Part shown: piece by piece, positions 1-30,327 of the stretch
How the letters are laid out: each line of letters opens with the position of its first letter
Position numbering within the stretch: position 1 is the first letter of the stretch
The notes under the pieces: generated by a model
Seen by the model: the letters and a program-made list of their open reading frames with translations, nothing else
Told to the model about the DNA's origin: nothing
Database searches by the model: none
IMG/VR virus record: IMGVR_UViG_2740892422_000002
Coordinates: 1 to 35,451 of that record
DNA: 35,451 nt
Origin: a virus
Taxonomy: Duplodnaviria; Heunggongvirae; Uroviricota; Caudoviricetes
Direction: 5' to 3' (one strand)
Program-made: the position numbers and the translations under genes

Positions 1-135
1 ATTGATTTTTCGCGAAACCATTTGATCATATGACAAGATGTGTATCCACCTTAACTTAATGATTTTTACCAAAATCATTAGGGGATTCATCAGCGCGCAG
101 CTCCTTTGAACCATAGCCGACAATCCGGCCTTCAT
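1..135 (-). CDS. mom: mom-like DNA modification protein, N-terminal fragment truncated by the window edge; start codon uncertain (ATG at 133..135 or 88..90)
   Basis: Open frame from ATG 133..135 to position 1 on the minus strand, immediately downstream of com; assignment is by synteny only, protein not recognised by sequence. Confidence 0.4.
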
Positions 136-1036: not shown

Positions 1037-4000
1037 TTACTCAATGCGCACGAACAAACAGATAAAGCCTCTGTCGCCATACGTTCCACGATAACCTGAC
1101 AGGGCCTGATAACGACCGGGAAAACTGAATGCCCCAGCACCACCCGCCTTTACTGAAGGTGTGGAAACATATGTCCCGGAATTATTAATTGCACAGTCGA
1201 TAGCCACAGGACCAAGTCGCGACCCCGCCACTACATCCCCAAGGCCAATTTTTATTTCCTTATCTCCTGCCGCTGTTCCCTGATAGACCGCGAGAATAAG
1301 AGAGCCAACTGCCGGATATTTGTAATATGAGGACGGGCCGTTGCCCGCCGTCCGGGACAGCAGGAAGGCCAGCGAATCGCCGTCGTAAATGACAGGGCTT
1401 ACTGTTGCATTCCAGTTGTTTCCACTCCAGCGATAAGTCAGGCGATGAATACTGTGCTCACCTTCGTAATACTGGTTAAAACACAGCAGCGTTTTGAATT
1501 TACGCGTTGTGTCCGATTCATCGTTATCAAAGGGCGACCACATCACATCAATGATGCCGTTAAATTTTGTGGTTCCTGCCAGTAGTGTGGAAGAATCCGC
1601 AATACTGACCGCATAACGCCCCGGGGTGACCTCTTTCAGCCACTCAGCAAAATCAGCCTGTCCATCAAATGCCAGTGCATCGGTGCTGGTAAATGCCTGA
1701 CCGAACCCATGCATACCAGACAGTGCCAGCCTGCCCGGTGTACGGTCGCGGATATCGCTCTGGGGTTCCATCGTCGCAGCCGCTTTCAGTTCAAGCTCCG
1801 TGCGCATGGCCTCAGACGTGTCCAGCGCCAGTAATGCGCGGGCTTTTTCTGACAGCTGTGCCAGTAAAACCCGGCCCTCTGCACTGAAATAAGGCAGTGT
1901 GTTTTCTTCCGGTGTTATCTGGCTGACAGCCGTTAACATGTCATTAAGCGGCTGCTTACCTGCCAGTGCATTAGTGACCGTTGTCGCAAAGTTCGGGTCA
2001 TTACCCAGCGCCGCTGCCAGCTCGTTCAGCGTGTCGAGGGCTTCCGGTGATGAGCCAACCAGCGCGGCAAGCAGTTTGCGGACAAACTCCGCATTGGCGA
2101 TTTCATTACCAGCTGCATCATCTGGCGGTGTTGGCGTTGTCGGCGTTCCGGTCAGTGCCGGGCTTTTCAGCGGTGCGCGGGTTTCAATCAGCGCCCGGAG
2201 TGAAGCCTCGTTGACTTTCAGGTTTTCCCAGCCAACCAGATAACCATCTCCGGCATTCCAGTAGCGATTGTAATAAATGTGGCCGTTAATACCGTAAAAA
2301 ATAATGATTTTAGCCACATATGCCGGATTGGGGTTGGTTTGAGGCTCCGGCCAGATAATTTCAACGGTACCATTGAACAGCACGCCCTGTATTACCGCAT
2401 TTGTATCTGCATAAACGGCATAGCGACCGGGTTTTGCCGTTTTTACCCAGCGGAGAAAATCGGTCTCTGTTTTAAACTCGGTTCTGTCGCCGCTGGAAAA
2501 TACTTTCCCGAATCCAAACATGCCGGGAATCGCCAGACGGCCTTCGGTGCGGTCGTAAATATTCTCCTGTGCATCCTTCTGTGCTGCATTGCCAAGTTGT
2601 GGCGTCAGATTCGTCCAGGTGACCGGGGCGGAGATATTATCGCCACGAACGGTCATAAGAATCCGTCCGTCTTTTCCAAAAAACAGAACCAGCTTTGTTG
2701 CTGTCTGGCTGGTTTTGTCGTCCCAGCCATTATCCAGCCAGATAATTTCTGTTATTCCGGTCGTCTCTTCCGTTTGTGTGGAAAAGGTGTAATACCGTCC
2801 CGGGTGCAGGTTATGCGCACTTTTGGCTATGGTCGCCATATCGCGGGCAATAATTGAACTTGCTCCGGCGTCCGTCATTCCGTAACCAAATGCACCTGGT
2901 AGCGCAACACGGCCTTCCGTGCTGTCGTAAAGGTCTGTCTGAATGTCCTTTACCGCCGCGCTTTTCAGCTCAAGCTCCGTGCGCATGGCTTCCACTGTGG
3001 CCTGTGCCAGCAGTGACCGGGCTTTTTCTGACAGCGGAGACAGTGAAGCATTCCCGTCCTGATTAAAGCACAGAAGATTATCTGCCCGTTCTTCCAGATT
3101 ACTGATTGCGGTTAACACGTCACTGAGTGGTTGTTTACCCGCCAGCGCGTTCATGATTGTTGTCGCAAACTCCGGGTCATTGCCCAGCGCCGCTGCCAGC
3201 TCGTTCAGTGTGTCCAGGGCTTCCGGTGACGAGTCAACCAGTGCGGCGAGCAGTTTGCGGACAAATGCCGCGTTCGCGGTTTCCAGACCGACTGCATCGT
3301 CCGGTGGGGTTGGTGTGGTTGGCGTACCCGTGAACGCCGGGCTGTCCAGCGGCGCTTTTGTTTTCGTCTCGTCCATGACGGCTTTGACAGCCTTTGGTGT
3401 GGCGGCCAGTTCTTCGCTGTCGTTGTCTGTATCACTACAGAGTTGCACCAGACCTTTTTGCGTCGTGCTGGCGTTGGTTCCTTTCAGGTCATCGACTATC
3501 CGTTGCGCCTCGTCCCTGTGCTGTTTCGCGTTCTGCTCGCTTTTTGCTGCCGCTTCGGCGCTGGCTTTTGCCTCGCCGGTCAGCGTTGCAGCATCAGCAA
3601 GTTTATCGACCGCTTTCTGGACTATCGCGTCAGCATCCTTGACAGCCTGTTCTGCGCGGGCGGCATTCTGGTTTGTTTCAGAGGCCAGCTCTTCAGCTTT
3701 CTGCACATTACCCGCAATTTCTTCTGCATCCTGCTGTATTTCCCCGGCGAGCGCTTCTGTATCCTGGCGGGCCTGTTCAGCAGCGGTGGCGTGCTCTCCT
3801 GCTTTTTCTGCGCTTTGCTGCGCCTGTTGCGCCAGCTCTTCGAATTTCTTCAGGGCTTCCGGGCGCAGGTCAATATCGGTTGCGCCCAGAAAATCATTCA
3901 GCGAACCGTCTGTCGAATCTTCATAAACGCGAATGACACCGATTTCTGAAAGGCGCTGTGTGCTTTGTGTCAGGCGAACGCTGTACACACCCGGCAGAAC

Positions 4001-21108: not shown

Positions 21109-22640
21109 AGTAAACCTCCCTCATTTTTCAGGCCGCGCGTCAGCTTCATCTGGCGGCGCGCGTTGCGTTCTTCCGGTTTCGCCGGGCGGTTCAGGCGGTG
21201 CAGTTCGTAACGGTGGCAGTCATCCTTGCTGGCAAGGAAGCCCAGGAAAATGGCCACAGCGGCGTCGCCGTGACGTTTGTGACCGTCGCTGCCTCTGGTT
21301 CGTGAATCATCAATGCCGGGAACGCCACGCAGTAACTGAATGGCCCCGAGGTCATTGATCACGTCTTCATGCTTCGGAAGGATCAGCTCATCATCTTCAA
21401 ACGCTGCACGGAACCGGGGCATGTTTTCGCGGTAGAACGCCACGGACAGCATCACCTGTTCCACTTCGTCGCCGTACCGCTCCGCCGCCTGTTCTGCCAG
21501 ATACTGACCATTCCCCCGCGCATCCATTTTGATACCGTCACGACGGGGCAGACGATCGCAAAGCCAGAACAGCACCTGCTCCTGCTGTTTAAACGGCACA
21601 TTGCCAAGCTCAACCAGGAACGGCACCTCGCGGGTGGTGTCATCGTTCACCGTCACCGGGGCCAGTACGGTCAGGTCACCCGAACGCGCAAAGTCTTCCC
21701 CCAGACAGTGGCGCAGGTTCTTCGGGAGTTTTTTCAGCTCGGGGCGCACCACCGTTTCCAGCCATTCCCGGATATCTGCCCGGCGCTGGCTTTCCGTCAG
21801 TGCGTTAAATTCCGGTGTGCCGGTAAAGCGCAACACTTTCCCGGTGCCACGGGCCGCACGTTCACGCAGTGAGCGGCGGATATACGTGCCGCCGCCGTTT
21901 TTCGGGACGCAGTAATACTCCTCCAGCGCGTCTTCGCGGGTGGCGGTATTTCGCAGCAGGCCTTCTTTCCATTCCGCCTCGGCTTCCGGTGACCACACCA
22001 TGCCGCGCACCTGACAGATACGTCGGTACAGCCCGTCATTGCAGGCGTCGTCCAGCGTGATGGTGTGAATGCTGTAATCTTTTTTGCCCGCGCGGCTTTC
22101 CTGAATCAGCTGGTTAAACAGGTTGTCCACGCCGTCATGGGTGGAAATAAGGCGAATTTTGCCGCCCCATGTTTTCAGCGGCAGCACAGCCTTCAGCAGC
22201 TCGTCCAGTTTTTCATGGAACGCGGCCTCGTCGATGGTGACATTCCCCTGCATCCCGCGAATGTTGCTCGGGTTGCTGGACAGTGCCTTGACCTTAAAAC
22301 CGCTGGCGAAGTACACGACGAACGTCAGAATGTCCTTGTCTTCGTCGGTGATCACTTCCTCGCAGATTTCTTCCGCTGCCGCATTAAACGCTTTCGCCCA
22401 CATCGCCACAGCGTCGATAAATTCGCGGGCCATCTCCTTATTCGAACCGATATAAAAGTGATCGCGCCCGCCGTCTTCCTTCTTCAGCGATGCCGTCAGT
22501 GCTGCATCTGCCGCCTCCGCCCAGGTTAAACCTGTACGGCGGGATTTCTCGGCGATTTTCAGGTCGGCATCATCCGCCACCCAGCGTTTCTGATACGGCA
22601 GCAGAACATCATATTCACTGAACGTATCCATTTGTGTCAT
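21105..22640 (-). CDS. terminase large subunit
   Basis: 511-aa ORF; ATGA overlap with the terminase small gene; ATPase and nuclease-like regions; position upstream of portal. Confidence 0.9.
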   Translation of the reverse strand: MTQMDTFSEYDVLLPYQKRWVADDADLKIAEKSRRTGLTWAEAADAALTASLKKEDGGRDHFYIGSNKEMAREFIDAVAMWAKAFNAAAEEICEEVITDEDKDILTFVVYFASGFKVKALSSNPSNIRGMQGNVTIDEAAFHEKLDELLKAVLPLKTWGGKIRLISTHDGVDNLFNQLIQESRAGKKDYSIHTITLDDACNDGLYRRICQVRGMVWSPEAEAEWKEGLLRNTATREDALEEYYCVPKNGGGTYIRRSLRERAARGTGKVLRFTGTPEFNALTESQRRADIREWLETVVRPELKKLPKNLRHCLGEDFARSGDLTVLAPVTVNDDTTREVPFLVELGNVPFKQQEQVLFWLCDRLPRRDGIKMDARGNGQYLAEQAAERYGDEVEQVMLSVAFYRENMPRFRAAFEDDELILPKHEDVINDLGAIQLLRGVPGIDDSRTRGSDGHKRHGDAAVAIFLGFLASKDDCHRYELHRLNRPAKPEERNARRQMKLTRGLKNEGGLL

Positions 22641-23218
22641 GCGCTAATCCCCAGAATTTCACGTTTGATGGTGTCAGCCGCACCACCTGACAGACCGCCC
22701 GTTCTGACCAGTTCTTCGGTTTTCTCTGCCATCTCCTGCGCAAACGCATCGCGGATCGCTTTCTCGCGTTTATGGCTGGTCATGGCTGCCGCTTCCAGAC
22801 GCTGGGCAACCAGCGCCAGTTGCCCCAGCGCCTTCGGTGCAACGGGCTTGTCGTCTTCTGCCATCGACATGGACGTTTCAAAGGCCAGCGTTTTCACAAA
22901 CTCCATCAGCAGCTTGCCGACGTCTGACGTCGGCGCGGAACCCAGCTTTGCCGCCCAGACTTCGGCCATTTCGCGGGAGGCGCGGATTTTGGCCCCGACT
23001 TTTTCCATGCGGATGGCATAGCGGTTTAAGCCCGTCCGGCTTAACTGCATCTCTTCCGGCAGGTTGTGTTCGTCAATCAGGGCGTTGATGGCTTCGCGGA
23101 TTTCTTCCTGCGTGTGCCGCTTTTCCCGCAGCATCTGATGCAACTGCTCCCGGATGCTGTCAGGGAGTAAATCCACTTTGGAAAGACGGCCACGGGTGGG
23201 GCGTTGTTCATTTTCCAT
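22637..23218 (-). CDS. terminase small subunit-like DNA-binding protein (Mu gp27/D-like)
   Basis: 193-aa product from ATG at 23218 with AGGAGG RBS (the ORF-track start at 23239 is a GTG); ...SKVDLLPDSIREQLHQML... typical of the Mu-like terminase small subunit family. Confidence 0.7.
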   Translation of the reverse strand: MENEQRPTRGRLSKVDLLPDSIREQLHQMLREKRHTQEEIREAINALIDEHNLPEEMQLSRTGLNRYAIRMEKVGAKIRASREMAEVWAAKLGSAPTSDVGKLLMEFVKTLAFETSMSMAEDDKPVAPKALGQLALVAQRLEAAAMTSHKREKAIRDAFAQEMAEKTEELVRTGGLSGGAADTIKREILGISA

Positions 23219-23355
23219 GTGTGCCCTCCTGTTGCTCACTACGCTGTAAACTTTCGTATGCAGATTTCAGTGCGCCGCTCTGGATTTCCCGCCATGTCAG
23301 GTTGTGCGCCAGACGGCGGAGTTCATCACGGGACGCTTTACTTATCGGATTCTTT

Positions 23356-23655
23356 TTACGGTTCACGACGGCCCCCGTCTTCAGTTCCCGGTGTTTTCAG
23401 ACCGGCGTATATTTCTTCGCGAACGGAGCGGATATCCTTACCCAGCAGCTTCCACAGCCGCGCACATGCCGGTGATGAACGCAGGGCACGTTTCATGGGG
23501 GTATCCGGTGCATCCGGGTTCCAGGGCTTTCCGGTCTGTTGTTCATATGCACGGGCGATGGCGTTTTTCTCAATATCCGCGAGCACAAGACAGTACGCCA
23601 GCTGCCGCACGACGGCCCGTTCTCCGCGACTTAACGGCTTCAGTTTTCGGGCCAT
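23356..23655 (-). CDS. hypothetical protein
   Basis: 99-aa ORF tightly packed after the upstream gene; no family recognised. Confidence 0.4.
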   Translation of the reverse strand: MARKLKPLSRGERAVVRQLAYCLVLADIEKNAIARAYEQQTGKPWNPDAPDTPMKRALRSSPACARLWKLLGKDIRSVREEIYAGLKTPGTEDGGRREP

Positions 23656-23657
23656 GC

Positions 23658-23951
23658 TCAGTCCCTCGCACGGGGTTTCTTAACGCCCGGAACGCTGGAC
23701 AGGCCGTTTGCCACATCCTCACCGCTGCCGGTGATTTCAGCCACGTAACAGCCGCCCACATCAGACAGACGAACCAGCCCCTGCTCGCGCAGCCATGCAA
23801 GCTGGGTGCGCACCACATCACGGGATACCTTATGACCGTAGGCCTGAAGGCAGGTCTGCAACACGGATTCATTCGCGCTGTCGCCACAGTCCAGCAGGGA
23901 ACGCAGCAACACCAGACGACGGTCTTCAGTGAGGATCTCTTTCATCGCCAT
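23658..23951 (-). CDS. hypothetical protein, possible winged-helix DNA-binding protein
   Basis: 97-aa ORF with ATG at 23951 overlapping the upstream stop; helix-rich N-terminal half. Confidence 0.45.
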   Translation of the reverse strand: MAMKEILTEDRRLVLLRSLLDCGDSANESVLQTCLQAYGHKVSRDVVRTQLAWLREQGLVRLSDVGGCYVAEITGSGEDVANGLSSVPGVKKPRARD

Positions 23952-24256
23952 TATTTTTTTTCCTTTAACTCGTTCTCTAATAACAAATCGCTGATGCGGG
24001 ATACCTGGCGGATGGATGGCCCCAGCTCTTTGATTTCTCCCCGCAGGTTGCTGATATCCAGTTGCAGGCGGTGGAACTCATCACGGTCGGGTAAATGGTG
24101 TACCTGGCTTTCCATCACCGACACGCGGGAACGGAGTGAATCAAACTCTTCACGTTTGACGTAGGTTTTCGCCAGAATCAACTGAAGCAGGTTTATTCCT
24201 GTCATCAGCAATGCCCACAGAATGGGCCAGTTGGCTCTGATCATTTCCCAGGACAC
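23951..24256 (-). CDS. membrane-anchored coiled-coil protein (DUF2730-like; candidate lysis accessory protein)
   Basis: 101-aa ORF with N-terminal hydrophobic segment WPILWALLMTGINLLQLIL followed by a charged coiled-coil region. Confidence 0.5.
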   Translation of the reverse strand: MSWEMIRANWPILWALLMTGINLLQLILAKTYVKREEFDSLRSRVSVMESQVHHLPDRDEFHRLQLDISNLRGEIKELGPSIRQVSRISDLLLENELKEKK

Positions 24257-25486: not shown

Positions 25487-25697
25487 TGAATTTTTCCCTG
25501 TACTTCTGGCACTGCCAGAAAATGTCCCGTGTATCCACGGAGTTCCAGCCACGCATGTAGTAGCTGGCGTGTGTGCCGTCATGGCCTGTATAGTCCAGCG
25601 GTTTCGGGGGCGGACCTCCGGCCATGCGGTGCAGAACCTCCTGACGCAGGCGGTCACGCCGCCCGGCTTTCAGTGAGGCATCCCAGCCTTTACCCAT
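25446..25697 (-). CDS. hypothetical protein (lysis cluster)
   Basis: 83-aa ORF whose ATG at 25697 follows the endolysin stop; no transmembrane segment or lipobox. Confidence 0.4.
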   Translation of the reverse strand: MGKGWDASLKAGRRDRLRQEVLHRMAGGPPPKPLDYTGHDGTHASYYMRGWNSVDTRDIFWQCQKYREKFNVEKGNEQNFKTV

Positions 25698-25698
25698 A

Positions 25699-26283
25699 TC
25701 ACCCCCGCGTGGCGGACATGATGCCCAGAGGGGTAAGACAGGCGTCGGTCAGCTTTTCCATGCGGTTAAACCAGCCGTTCAGGTATTTGCCCTGGGCGGG
25801 TTTTGATTTGATGATGTCGGCATAAAAGCGGGAACGACGGACAATACAGCGGGCCAGCAGCCAGTCAGGGGTGGACTGGCTCACGGCCTTGCGGGTACGC
25901 GGCCCGATGATGCCGTCAGCATCCACATCAGCGGCCTCCTGCAAAAGTTTGATAGCCTTTTTAACGCCATGCTGAACCGCCGCATCAAACACAAAAAGCG
26001 CCACGCCATCAGGCCACTGGTCACACCCGGCAGGCAGCCAGTAATCGCGCCAGTAAATCTGCGCAACCTGTTCGCGGGTCAAATCCTTAATGCGGGTATC
26101 CGGTTTGCCGTCGCCGTTGACGTCGGTTTTGCCGTCAATCACACCGTCGCGGCGGTCAGAAATGCCGTATTTGGTTTCGCCGCCACGGTCAGTGGGGTCA
26201 TTGACATAGACGCCTTCGATATCGGGACGCAGAATGAAATTCAGCGCATGTTCAAAGGCCGGGGAGAATTTTTGATTTTCCAT
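25699..26283 (-). CDS. endolysin, glycoside hydrolase family 108-like with C-terminal peptidoglycan-binding domain
   Basis: 194-aa ORF; N-terminal ...ALNFILRPDIEGVYVNDPTDRGGETKYGIS... matches the GH108 catalytic motif; no signal or SAR sequence. Confidence 0.8.
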   Translation of the reverse strand: MENQKFSPAFEHALNFILRPDIEGVYVNDPTDRGGETKYGISDRRDGVIDGKTDVNGDGKPDTRIKDLTREQVAQIYWRDYWLPAGCDQWPDGVALFVFDAAVQHGVKKAIKLLQEAADVDADGIIGPRTRKAVSQSTPDWLLARCIVRRSRFYADIIKSKPAQGKYLNGWFNRMEKLTDACLTPLGIMSATRG

Positions 26284-28949: not shown

Positions 28950-29474
28950 TTAAATACCGGCTTCCTGTTCAAACGGAATAATAGAAAAATCTTCAATGCC
29001 TGATTTAACTGTAATTCCGGCGACACCTGCGACTGCTTTCGGTTCCAGTAAAATCGCTTCCTTGTTGATTTCCTGTTTCGTGCGAATAAAGCGTTGCAGG
29101 CCAAGACGCTCCAGCGTTTCCATCACCGCATCCACACCGCGAATACTTACCGATGGTGGGCGCTGACGCCATGACACATCGCCGGTTACCAGGTTCGCCG
29201 TCTTCACCTTGCCGCCGTTCGTCAGTTCGTCGCGGTTCGCTTCACACCATCCCTGAACGCCTTTTGAAAGGGTTTCAATACTGGTTTTAAGGGGCGCAAT
29301 CTGTGAGGCGTATTTCTCAGTAATTTCAGCGATAGCGTCATTCATTTCCGTTTCAAGTCGTGCCGCTTCGCGTTGCAGGTCACCAATCCGGCGAATATCA
29401 CACACCACGGCATCGCGGGATTGCGGAACATAAGCTGCTGCGGCACTCTTGATTCGTTTTGCTGGTTTAGCCAT
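28950..29474 (-). CDS. gam: host-nuclease inhibitor Gam (Ku-like DNA end-binding protein)
   Basis: 174-aa ORF MAKPAKRIKSAAAAYVPQSRDAV... with coiled-coil; matches Mu Gam in length and sequence as recalled. Confidence 0.85.
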   Translation of the reverse strand: MAKPAKRIKSAAAAYVPQSRDAVVCDIRRIGDLQREAARLETEMNDAIAEITEKYASQIAPLKTSIETLSKGVQGWCEANRDELTNGGKVKTANLVTGDVSWRQRPPSVSIRGVDAVMETLERLGLQRFIRTKQEINKEAILLEPKAVAGVAGITVKSGIEDFSIIPFEQEAGI

Positions 29475-29494
29475 ATAAATAAAGCTCCTGTTAA

Positions 29495-29785
29495 TTAATA
29501 TTCGCTGTATACAATGCTGGATACAGCACGATTGCTTAATTCCATCTTTTGGGCAATGACATGAATAGCCAGCCCTTCTTTATAAAGTTCACGACACAAA
29601 TATTTGTCGTGCTCACTGACCCGGTATGCACACAACGATATTCCGTGCCTTCTGGCATGTGCCTGTAGGGCGGTTGGGGCAACGTTCAGTTTTTTCGCCA
29701 TTTCCTCGACGGTCATTTTCCCGACACTGGCTTCGATAAATTCCCGGTCTTCGCGTGACCATCTTTTGCGAGGGATTATCATCAT
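29495..29785 (-). CDS. small HTH-containing DNA-binding protein
   Basis: 96-aa product from ATG at 29785 with GGGAAGGAGG RBS; HTH-like segment TVEEMAKKLNVAPTALQAHARRHGIS. Confidence 0.5.
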   Translation of the reverse strand: MMIIPRKRWSREDREFIEASVGKMTVEEMAKKLNVAPTALQAHARRHGISLCAYRVSEHDKYLCRELYKEGLAIHVIAQKMELSNRAVSSIVYSEY

Positions 29786-29801
29786 GCCTCCTTCCCTGAA
29801 A

Positions 29802-30071
29802 TTAATGTTTGGCTGCATCCGGGTTATACCGGAATAACTCGCCTTCGGCTTCCAGCCCAAGTTCTCTGGCTGACTTCAACAACTCCTGGGTTGCTTTTTC
29901 AATAATTTCAGGAGCCATGCTCTTGATAATGCCTGCCATCACGTCATGTGGTCCGATTTGCGCCTTAGGTGACTGTTCTTTCAGTTGCACACTCATTCCT
30001 ACAAAGAAACCTCCTTTTTTCTGAAACTCAACATCTTCCATGCGGTTAAATTCAAAGATTACTTTTGCCAT
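29802..30071 (-). CDS. hypothetical early protein
   Basis: 89-aa product from ATG at 30071 with GAGGAA RBS (MAKVIFEFNRMEDVEFQKKGG...). Confidence 0.5.
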   Translation of the reverse strand: MAKVIFEFNRMEDVEFQKKGGFFVGMSVQLKEQSPKAQIGPHDVMAGIIKSMAPEIIEKATQELLKSARELGLEAEGELFRYNPDAAKH

Positions 30072-30099
30072 TTTGTTATTCCTCACAAATAAGCCGTTA

Positions 30100-30327
30100 T
30101 TAACGCCAGATAATCTGGCAACCATTAAGGCGGGCCGTCCATACGGAACGGGCAACCCCTGATTTATGCTCCATAATCCTGACAGCGTTTCTGACCAGCT
30201 CCGGTGGTGGGCAGGTGATTTCAAGTACCGGGCGGGCTACGCCCAGCCAGGATTCGTTGACGTGGCTGCCGTGCTCCTGTAACCAGGTCTTTACTTCCGT
30301 TGCCATTTTGATATTCCGTGACATCAT
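30100..30327 (-). CDS. kil: Kil-like small protein (by position after B)
   Basis: 75-aa product from ATG at 30327 with GGAGAG RBS, starting 13 nt after the B stop; assignment by synteny with Mu. Confidence 0.45.

Follow-up and report, generated by a model that had tools for sequence, protein, structure and literature searches.

A Mu gp26 orthologue and phrog_8988 genes head to tail with the terminase genes of a Mu-like Escherichia coli prophage

The locus within a Mu-like prophage

The stretch of DNA analysed here (the window, 35,451 nucleotides of an IMG/VR virus record) is a Mu-like prophage in reverse orientation, as established by profile and DNA comparison with Mu-like phages. Its minus strand runs from a GH108 endolysin gene through a Mu gp18-like gene, two membrane/holin-like genes and a TraR/DksA zinc-finger gene to a DUF2730 gene, a 97-aa gene, a 99-aa gene and the genes for the small and large terminase subunits. 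The DUF2730 gene (23951..24256, minus strand) is a member of the Mu gp25 releasin family, based on its Pfam match (PF10805, E 1e-30), the Mu annotation and published work (PMC9239132). Its stop overlaps the start of the 97-aa gene (23658..23951, minus strand) in a 1-nt TAATG junction, and 2 nt (TGA-GC-ATG) then separate the 97-aa gene from the 99-aa gene (23356..23655, minus strand). A first-pass annotation of this DNA had singled out these two ORFs as a tightly spaced, unassigned pair immediately upstream of the terminase genes, and the frames, the spacing and the position all hold. The small terminase gene is of the Mu gp27 (DUF3486) type (22637..23218, minus strand; Pfam PF11985, E 2e-54). 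The mechanically called ORF (22637..23239, minus strand) begins at GTG 23239, but the conserved and annotated start is ATG 23218, which has AGGAGG 7 nt upstream and is also the RefSeq start in a 99.9%-identical record.

Downstream of the 99-aa gene, 137 bp (23219..23355) remain before the small terminase gene, and these had been taken for a non-coding gap. They lie entirely within a 52-codon ORF with a GTG start (23208..23366, minus strand), which the NCBI pipeline annotates as WP_001080358.1 in the closest genome. The small late genes of the region would then number three, not two, all read along the minus strand one after another into the terminase genes. The last 11 nt of the 99-aa gene are also the first 11 nt of the 52-codon ORF, its GTG included (23356..23366, minus strand), and the 52-codon frame in turn stops a few codons into the small terminase gene, in a second 11-nt overlap, ATGGAAAATGA (23208..23218, minus strand). 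The chain of junctions from the DUF2730 gene to the small terminase gene therefore measures 1, 2, 11 and 11 nt. A GGGGG run precedes the first 11-nt overlap, just upstream of the 99-aa stop (23358..23374, minus strand), and the 52-codon ORF lies in the +1 frame. All three reading frames are already known from RefSeq, with near-identical proteins, and two of them, the 97-aa and 99-aa genes, are unremarkable and fall into families that have been catalogued.

A promoter or a pac-related site had also been proposed for the 137-bp interval. A minus-strand scan for sigma-70-like sites (-35/-10 hexamers, 16-18 nt spacing), which leaves out activator-dependent late promoters, returned 2 sites in 4 kb against 2.0 expected, none of them at 23219..23355. 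RNA folding round the terminase start in five lineages gave nothing beyond shuffled controls (z -0.8 to +1.6), and Rfam had no match in the region of the two genes and the interval. A pac site here is unlikely because Mu-type phages initiate packaging at the phage end and not near the terminase genes (PMC5557969), and because many otherwise identical prophages do without the 160-bp segment.

The wider prophage offers several further observations. The E. coli ETEC1732 record (L005) is 99.9% identical across the compared 1-kb segment (window 23100..24100). Its prophage is complete, with transposase, Gam, Mor, portal, head and tail genes, com and mom, and is integrated in flhA. RefSeq flags frameshifts in the tail assembly gene (25578..25972) and a baseplate gene (29144..30215) of that record; the former could be a programmed frameshift of the kind usual in tail chaperones. 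At window positions 1..48, plus strand, Rfam identifies RNA-OUT, the IS10/Tn10 antisense RNA (56.9 bits, with its 5' end cut by the window edge), so the window begins inside an IS10 end, beside the tail-fibre end of the prophage. In the related ETEC1732 prophage, com and mom occupy this position. Finally, a 105-codon ORF (23570..23887, minus strand) crosses the 97-/99-aa junction in another frame; it looks spurious, since its sequence varies freely where the 97-aa and 99-aa genes change synonymously in relatives.

The gp26 orthologue

Judged from its sequence, the 97-aa gene is orthologous to Mu gp26, one of the core genes of Mu-like phages, and it can no longer be called unassigned. The protein is 59% identical to Mu gp26 (Mup26, AAF01104.1) over its full length. 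It belongs to the VpaChn25_0724 family, with matches to NCBIfam NF050184 (122.2 bits, cut-off 65, residues 9-94) and to phrog_436 (E 6e-38). At the DNA level, blastn matches the 97-aa region to genes 25 and 26 of Mu, D108, SfMu and related phages. Pfam has no family for the protein at E <= 0.01, its HTH_5/HTH_20-type profiles (ArsR/SmtB regulators) included, and the sole other NCBIfam match falls far under its cut-off.

The predicted fold agrees with this assignment. The AF2 model, built with 36 homologues, has a pLDDT of 94 and a pTM of 0.86, and its topology, H1-b1-H2-H3-b2-b3, is that of a canonical winged helix; the curated Mu record likewise describes Mu gp26 as a winged-HTH protein. Foldseek searches with the model retrieved STIV F93 (2co5), pNOB8 AspA (5k5q/4rs8), TubR, Sso10a and proteins of the MarR, ArsR, PadR and Fur groups, with F93, AspA and the MarR/ArsR/PadR proteins ranking highest, at a probability of 1.0, TM scores of 0.57-0.66 and an rmsd of ~2 A over 70-75 residues at 12-26% identity. 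Outside the fold, the protein carries a conserved basic C-terminal tail, VPGVKKPRAR, within which PGVKKPR is the most conserved stretch. Small winged-helix proteins are usually dimeric, and fold and synteny together suggest that the gp26 orthologue would bind DNA, probably as a dimer. It may work with the small terminase in DNA maturation, or in late-stage regulation. The first-pass annotation had offered packaging accessory and regulator as possible roles, and for this protein either is a reasonable suggestion, given a predicted fold of DNA-binding type and a position before the small terminase gene.

The phrog_8988 genes and their polymorphic slot

The 99-aa protein matches phrog_8988 over residues 1-91 of the 92-position profile (E 6e-43). 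This is a catalogued family without an assigned function, and to that extent the label of unassigned still applies. With a pI of 9.9 the protein is basic, and an all-helical structure is predicted for it, though by an unreliable model (AF2 pLDDT 62) for which Foldseek returned nothing at E < 5. No fold is claimed for it, since the pLDDT is only 62 and the Foldseek matches are noise. The family has no match in Pfam, NCBIfam or PADLOC, and the PADLOC profiles for anti-phage defence hit none of the products of the 97-aa, 99-aa and 52-codon frames. A full HMMER scan of 1.84 billion representatives yielded 14 matches to the 99-aa protein, and a search of viral contigs with P0166 gave none. PDB searches with two family profiles retrieved only a designed consensus-TPR protein, at a whole-sequence E of 0.002-0.004 that is summed over four repeats, each non-significant alone. 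Residues 35-76 of the 99-aa protein weakly resemble one TPR unit, and Pfam gives no TPR match. Two possible origins were tried and rejected: hhalign gave a probability of 0.3% for phrog_8988 as a fragment of the window's small terminase, and of 0.4% for a relationship with the gp26 alignment.

Homologues of phrog_8988 lie between gp26 and TerS in ~30 viral loci. For example, Klebsiella phage Kp4866-3 (a 91-aa ORF), Trabulsiella and Shewanella phage MuM16-1 (p25) each have a member directly before the terminase gene. The family is not strictly terminase-linked, since the homologue in Pseudoalteromonas phage HS6, gp37 (L007, 2501..2782), lies away from the terminase gene in a lysis cassette, between gp18-like and holin-like genes. 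HS6 gp37 overlaps both of its neighbours by 11 nt, with ATGGCAATTAA as the 3' junction. Its upstream neighbour, HS6 gp38, was considered as a second paralogue and set aside, as it shows 6% identity only and resembles the Mu gp18-like gene. Two loci with 31%-identity matches (L026 and L027) were also dropped as apparently spurious; they have no homologous ORF or Mu-like context. Mu itself carries no phrog_8988 gene and packages without one.

The 52-codon ORF is read as a truncated paralogue of the 99-aa gene, consisting of the N-terminal ~38 residues and a short tail. This rests on its N-terminal match to the 99-aa protein (BLASTP, 39% identity over 38 aa of the two N-termini, E 3e-8) and on its match to positions 1-39 of phrog_8988 (E 8e-4). 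An hmmsearch value of E ~1e-13 was circular, the profile having included the sequence itself, and was left out as evidence. The 99-aa gene no longer overlaps the terminase gene because its 3' end has been displaced by this paralogue. The 11-nt overlap geometry recurs in five lineages, namely the 95-aa allele described below, Trabulsiella, MuM16-1, Kp4866-3 and HS6, the last with a different downstream gene.

A slot of variable content separates gp26 from the small terminase gene. In the Mu-proper group (gp26 identity <=72%), gp26 abuts the terminase gene, with a gap of -17 to +9 nt. In the enterobacterial clade (gp26 identity >=73%), one or more genes are inserted, usually occupying ~265-280 nt and in other cases 369, 439 or ~630 nt; in nearly every locus of this clade the insert is a phrog_8988 gene of ~90-95 aa. 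One locus (L062) has a gap of only 54 nt. An extra gene of ~125 aa, with the motif LDRSETQLI.ERD...YEAVTG.PPEWS and no Pfam match, occurs between gp26 and the phrog_8988 gene in L044-L047, L055 and L058 (~2091..2474) and in L029 (117..356); at L055 nothing else occupies the slot.

The variation extends to prophages whose gp26 proteins are identical or differ by no more than one residue. Among these, the 99+52 aa arrangement is found in the window, L002, L004 and L010-L018, and a 95-aa gene stands alone in L003 and L019-L025. A 67-aa fusion (P0178) occurs in 194 index blocks, a 52-aa chimera (P0180) in Escherichia marmotae, and a diverged 52-aa gene alone (P0181) in L028. A 52-aa gene is the sole occupant of the slot in L033 and L034 as well as in L028, and in Mu the slot is empty. 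All alleles begin 2 nt past the gp26 stop and finish at the terminase overlap. On the minus strand, an 11-nt direct repeat, GGGCCGTCGTG, has its first copy within the 99-aa gene (codons 11-16, 23608..23618) and its second where this gene meets the 52-codon ORF (23364..23374). The two copies are 244 nt apart, and loss of the 244 nt between them leaves precisely the 67-aa fusion, in which residues 1-16 of the 99-aa gene run straight into the 52-codon ORF. Recombination at the repeat accounts for this allele, which is common in other E. coli prophages.

Interpretation and comparison with known systems

We consider it probable, though well short of certain, that the locus belongs to the late operon for lysis and packaging in a Mu-like E. 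coli prophage, and that a gp26 orthologue, a phrog_8988 gene and its truncated paralogue are coupled there to the terminase genes. By analogy with Mu, the genes would be co-transcribed from a late lys-type promoter. The geometry of the junctions suggests that ribosomes ending one frame would be delivered to the next start, that is, translational coupling. We propose that, through the 1-, 2- and 11-nt junctions, synthesis of the small terminase would be linked to translation of the frame before it. RNA folding gave no sign of a sequestered terminase start, which counts against dependence on coupling. Conservation in relatives, which had been put forward as the measure of whether the two ORFs are genuine, bears them out: both genes are real, under purifying selection and chained tightly to the terminase genes. 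In 21 related loci, polymorphic sites fall at the three codon positions as 2, 0 and 21 in the 97-aa gene (binomial P=1e-8, pN/pS 0.04) and as 16, 7 and 35 in the 99-aa gene (P=2e-5, pN/pS 0.22-0.23).

The most serious competing explanation concerns the third gene. A copy that was duplicated or recombined could have left the 52-codon ORF behind as a functionless, decaying remnant, retained because the small terminase gene has its ribosome-binding site and start in the 3' end of the segment; this is a live possibility, if one we hold only tentatively. Half of the family's conserved residues (G42, K43, Y45, L58 and P62) are missing from the 52-codon product, and the whole segment is missing from many prophages. 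The codon-position bias is non-significant (P 0.08-0.09), a result of there being only 10-20 polymorphic sites. Against decay, pN/pS is 0.21 in the ORF's own frame versus 0.57 or undefined in the other frames, and the frame is open in 23 of the 24 copies examined. The exception (L009, IMG/VR 2513237361_000012) has a 1-nt deletion at ~2865 in locus coordinates, AACCTGACATGG to AACCGACATGG, that frameshifts the ORF in a copy otherwise 100% identical; either a sequencing error or genuine inactivation could account for it. The gene is also the only one in the slot in other lineages, one with 83% identity, and every architecture preserves a frame that ends at the terminase overlap. The 52-codon ORF is probably a gene.

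A second alternative holds that the gp26 orthologue is a transcription regulator, acting on late or lysis timing or on host genes, with no direct part in packaging, and that its position is simply inherited gene order. The predicted winged helix does resemble the MarR, ArsR, PadR and Fur regulators, many sources name homologues of the protein ArsR-family regulators, and lysis genes lie upstream. We found no functional study of Mu gp26 in the literature. In the only published study of a gp26-family member, deletion of VpaChn25_0724 in a Vibrio prophage remnant had pleiotropic effects on growth, the membrane and the transcriptome, not a packaging defect (PMC7756092), which counts against a packaging reading. 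However, Pfam places the protein in no regulator family at E <= 0.01, and the centromere-binding or architectural proteins AspA, TubR, Sso10a and F93 are equally good structural matches. The gp26 gene is a late one, expressed later than the known Mu regulators Mor and C, and a small terminase gene follows the gp26 homologue on the same strand in all 80 of the related IMG/VR viral loci examined. A purely regulatory role is on this evidence rather doubtful.

The phrog_8988 genes raise a similar question. The 99-aa gene is a clade-restricted, faster-evolving and dispensable accessory gene of a family whose frame stops, in nearly all cases, 11 nt into the gene that follows. It is a further step to suppose that both the 99-aa and the 52-aa genes serve, for example, in host interaction or counter-defence and have no packaging role, and we regard that step as unlikely. 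In its favour, phrog_8988 genes are absent from Mu and from more distant Mu-like phages, their presence and truncated forms differ among near-identical prophages, they evolve faster than their neighbours (pN/pS 0.22 versus 0.04), and the HS6 member has a different gene position. Yet defence-related models and known families give no match, the variation consists of truncations of one family and not of swaps of unrelated genes, and the same 11-nt overlap ties the gene to the terminase start in ~30 loci.

Stronger claims for the module fare less well. The phrog_8988 module might be a terminase-coupled modulator, its alleles (99+52, 95, 67, 52 and none) reflecting selection on that role, but we think this highly improbable. 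Were it true, the small terminase or the packaging site would be bound by the product, or small terminase dosage would be set by how much of the product is translated. The outcome would be a change in how efficiently or specifically DNA is packaged, or in visibility to host defences that sense terminase. A minor variant of this modulator reading, sharing its low probability, is that +1 slippage at the GGGGG run fuses the 99-aa and 52-codon products into a protein of ~148 aa (...TEDGAVVNRKK...); the databases contain no protein with such a fusion. Weakest of all, and barely credible, is a non-coding spacer at 23219..23355 with a promoter or pac-related site for the terminase genes, for which nothing was found beyond its sole basis, the 137-bp interval between annotated genes, and against which stand an annotated ORF spanning that interval, its want of promoter-like sites and unusual RNA structure, the start of Mu-type packaging at the phage end, and the many otherwise identical prophages in which the 160-bp segment is missing and the upstream gene abuts the terminase start.

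For the operon reading that we favour, the consequences are of little importance beyond annotation. The 97-aa gene should be read as a Mu gp26 orthologue and the gap as coding sequence, in which there is no need to seek a promoter or a pac site. Natural polymorphism at the slot before the small terminase gene gives five alleles in near-identical prophages, with the 11-nt terminase overlap always kept. This allele set could serve as a ready-made genetic series for the study of translational coupling, and of the roles of gp26 and phrog_8988 in Mu-like phages.

Each part of the locus has a counterpart in known systems. In translationally coupled gene pairs of phage late operons, the stop lies at or inside the next start, as it does in the window with its TAATG junction, 2-nt spacer and two 11-nt overlaps. 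Compared with known coupled pairs, coupling in the window is suggested by geometry only, and folding detected no structure that sequesters the downstream start. The phrog_8988 members of Kp4866-3, MuM16-1 (p25) and HS6 (gp37) fall, like the 99-aa protein, in the 90-99 aa length class and overlap the next gene by 11 nt; the E. coli branch of the family has diverged in the central TGKPYD...FLNxNPEY motif. With F93, AspA, TubR and the MarR/ArsR/PadR proteins, the 97-aa protein has a fold in common, a structural likeness only and one taken from a predicted model. Unlike those winged-helix proteins, it has no Pfam family and no identified ligand- or metal-binding features. The closest counterpart is Mu gp26 itself, which resembles the 97-aa protein in size, in its predicted winged-helix fold and in its place between the DUF2730 releasin and gp27 genes. 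In Mu, gp27 follows gp26 after an 11-nt spacer, whereas in the window two extra reading frames have been inserted between them.
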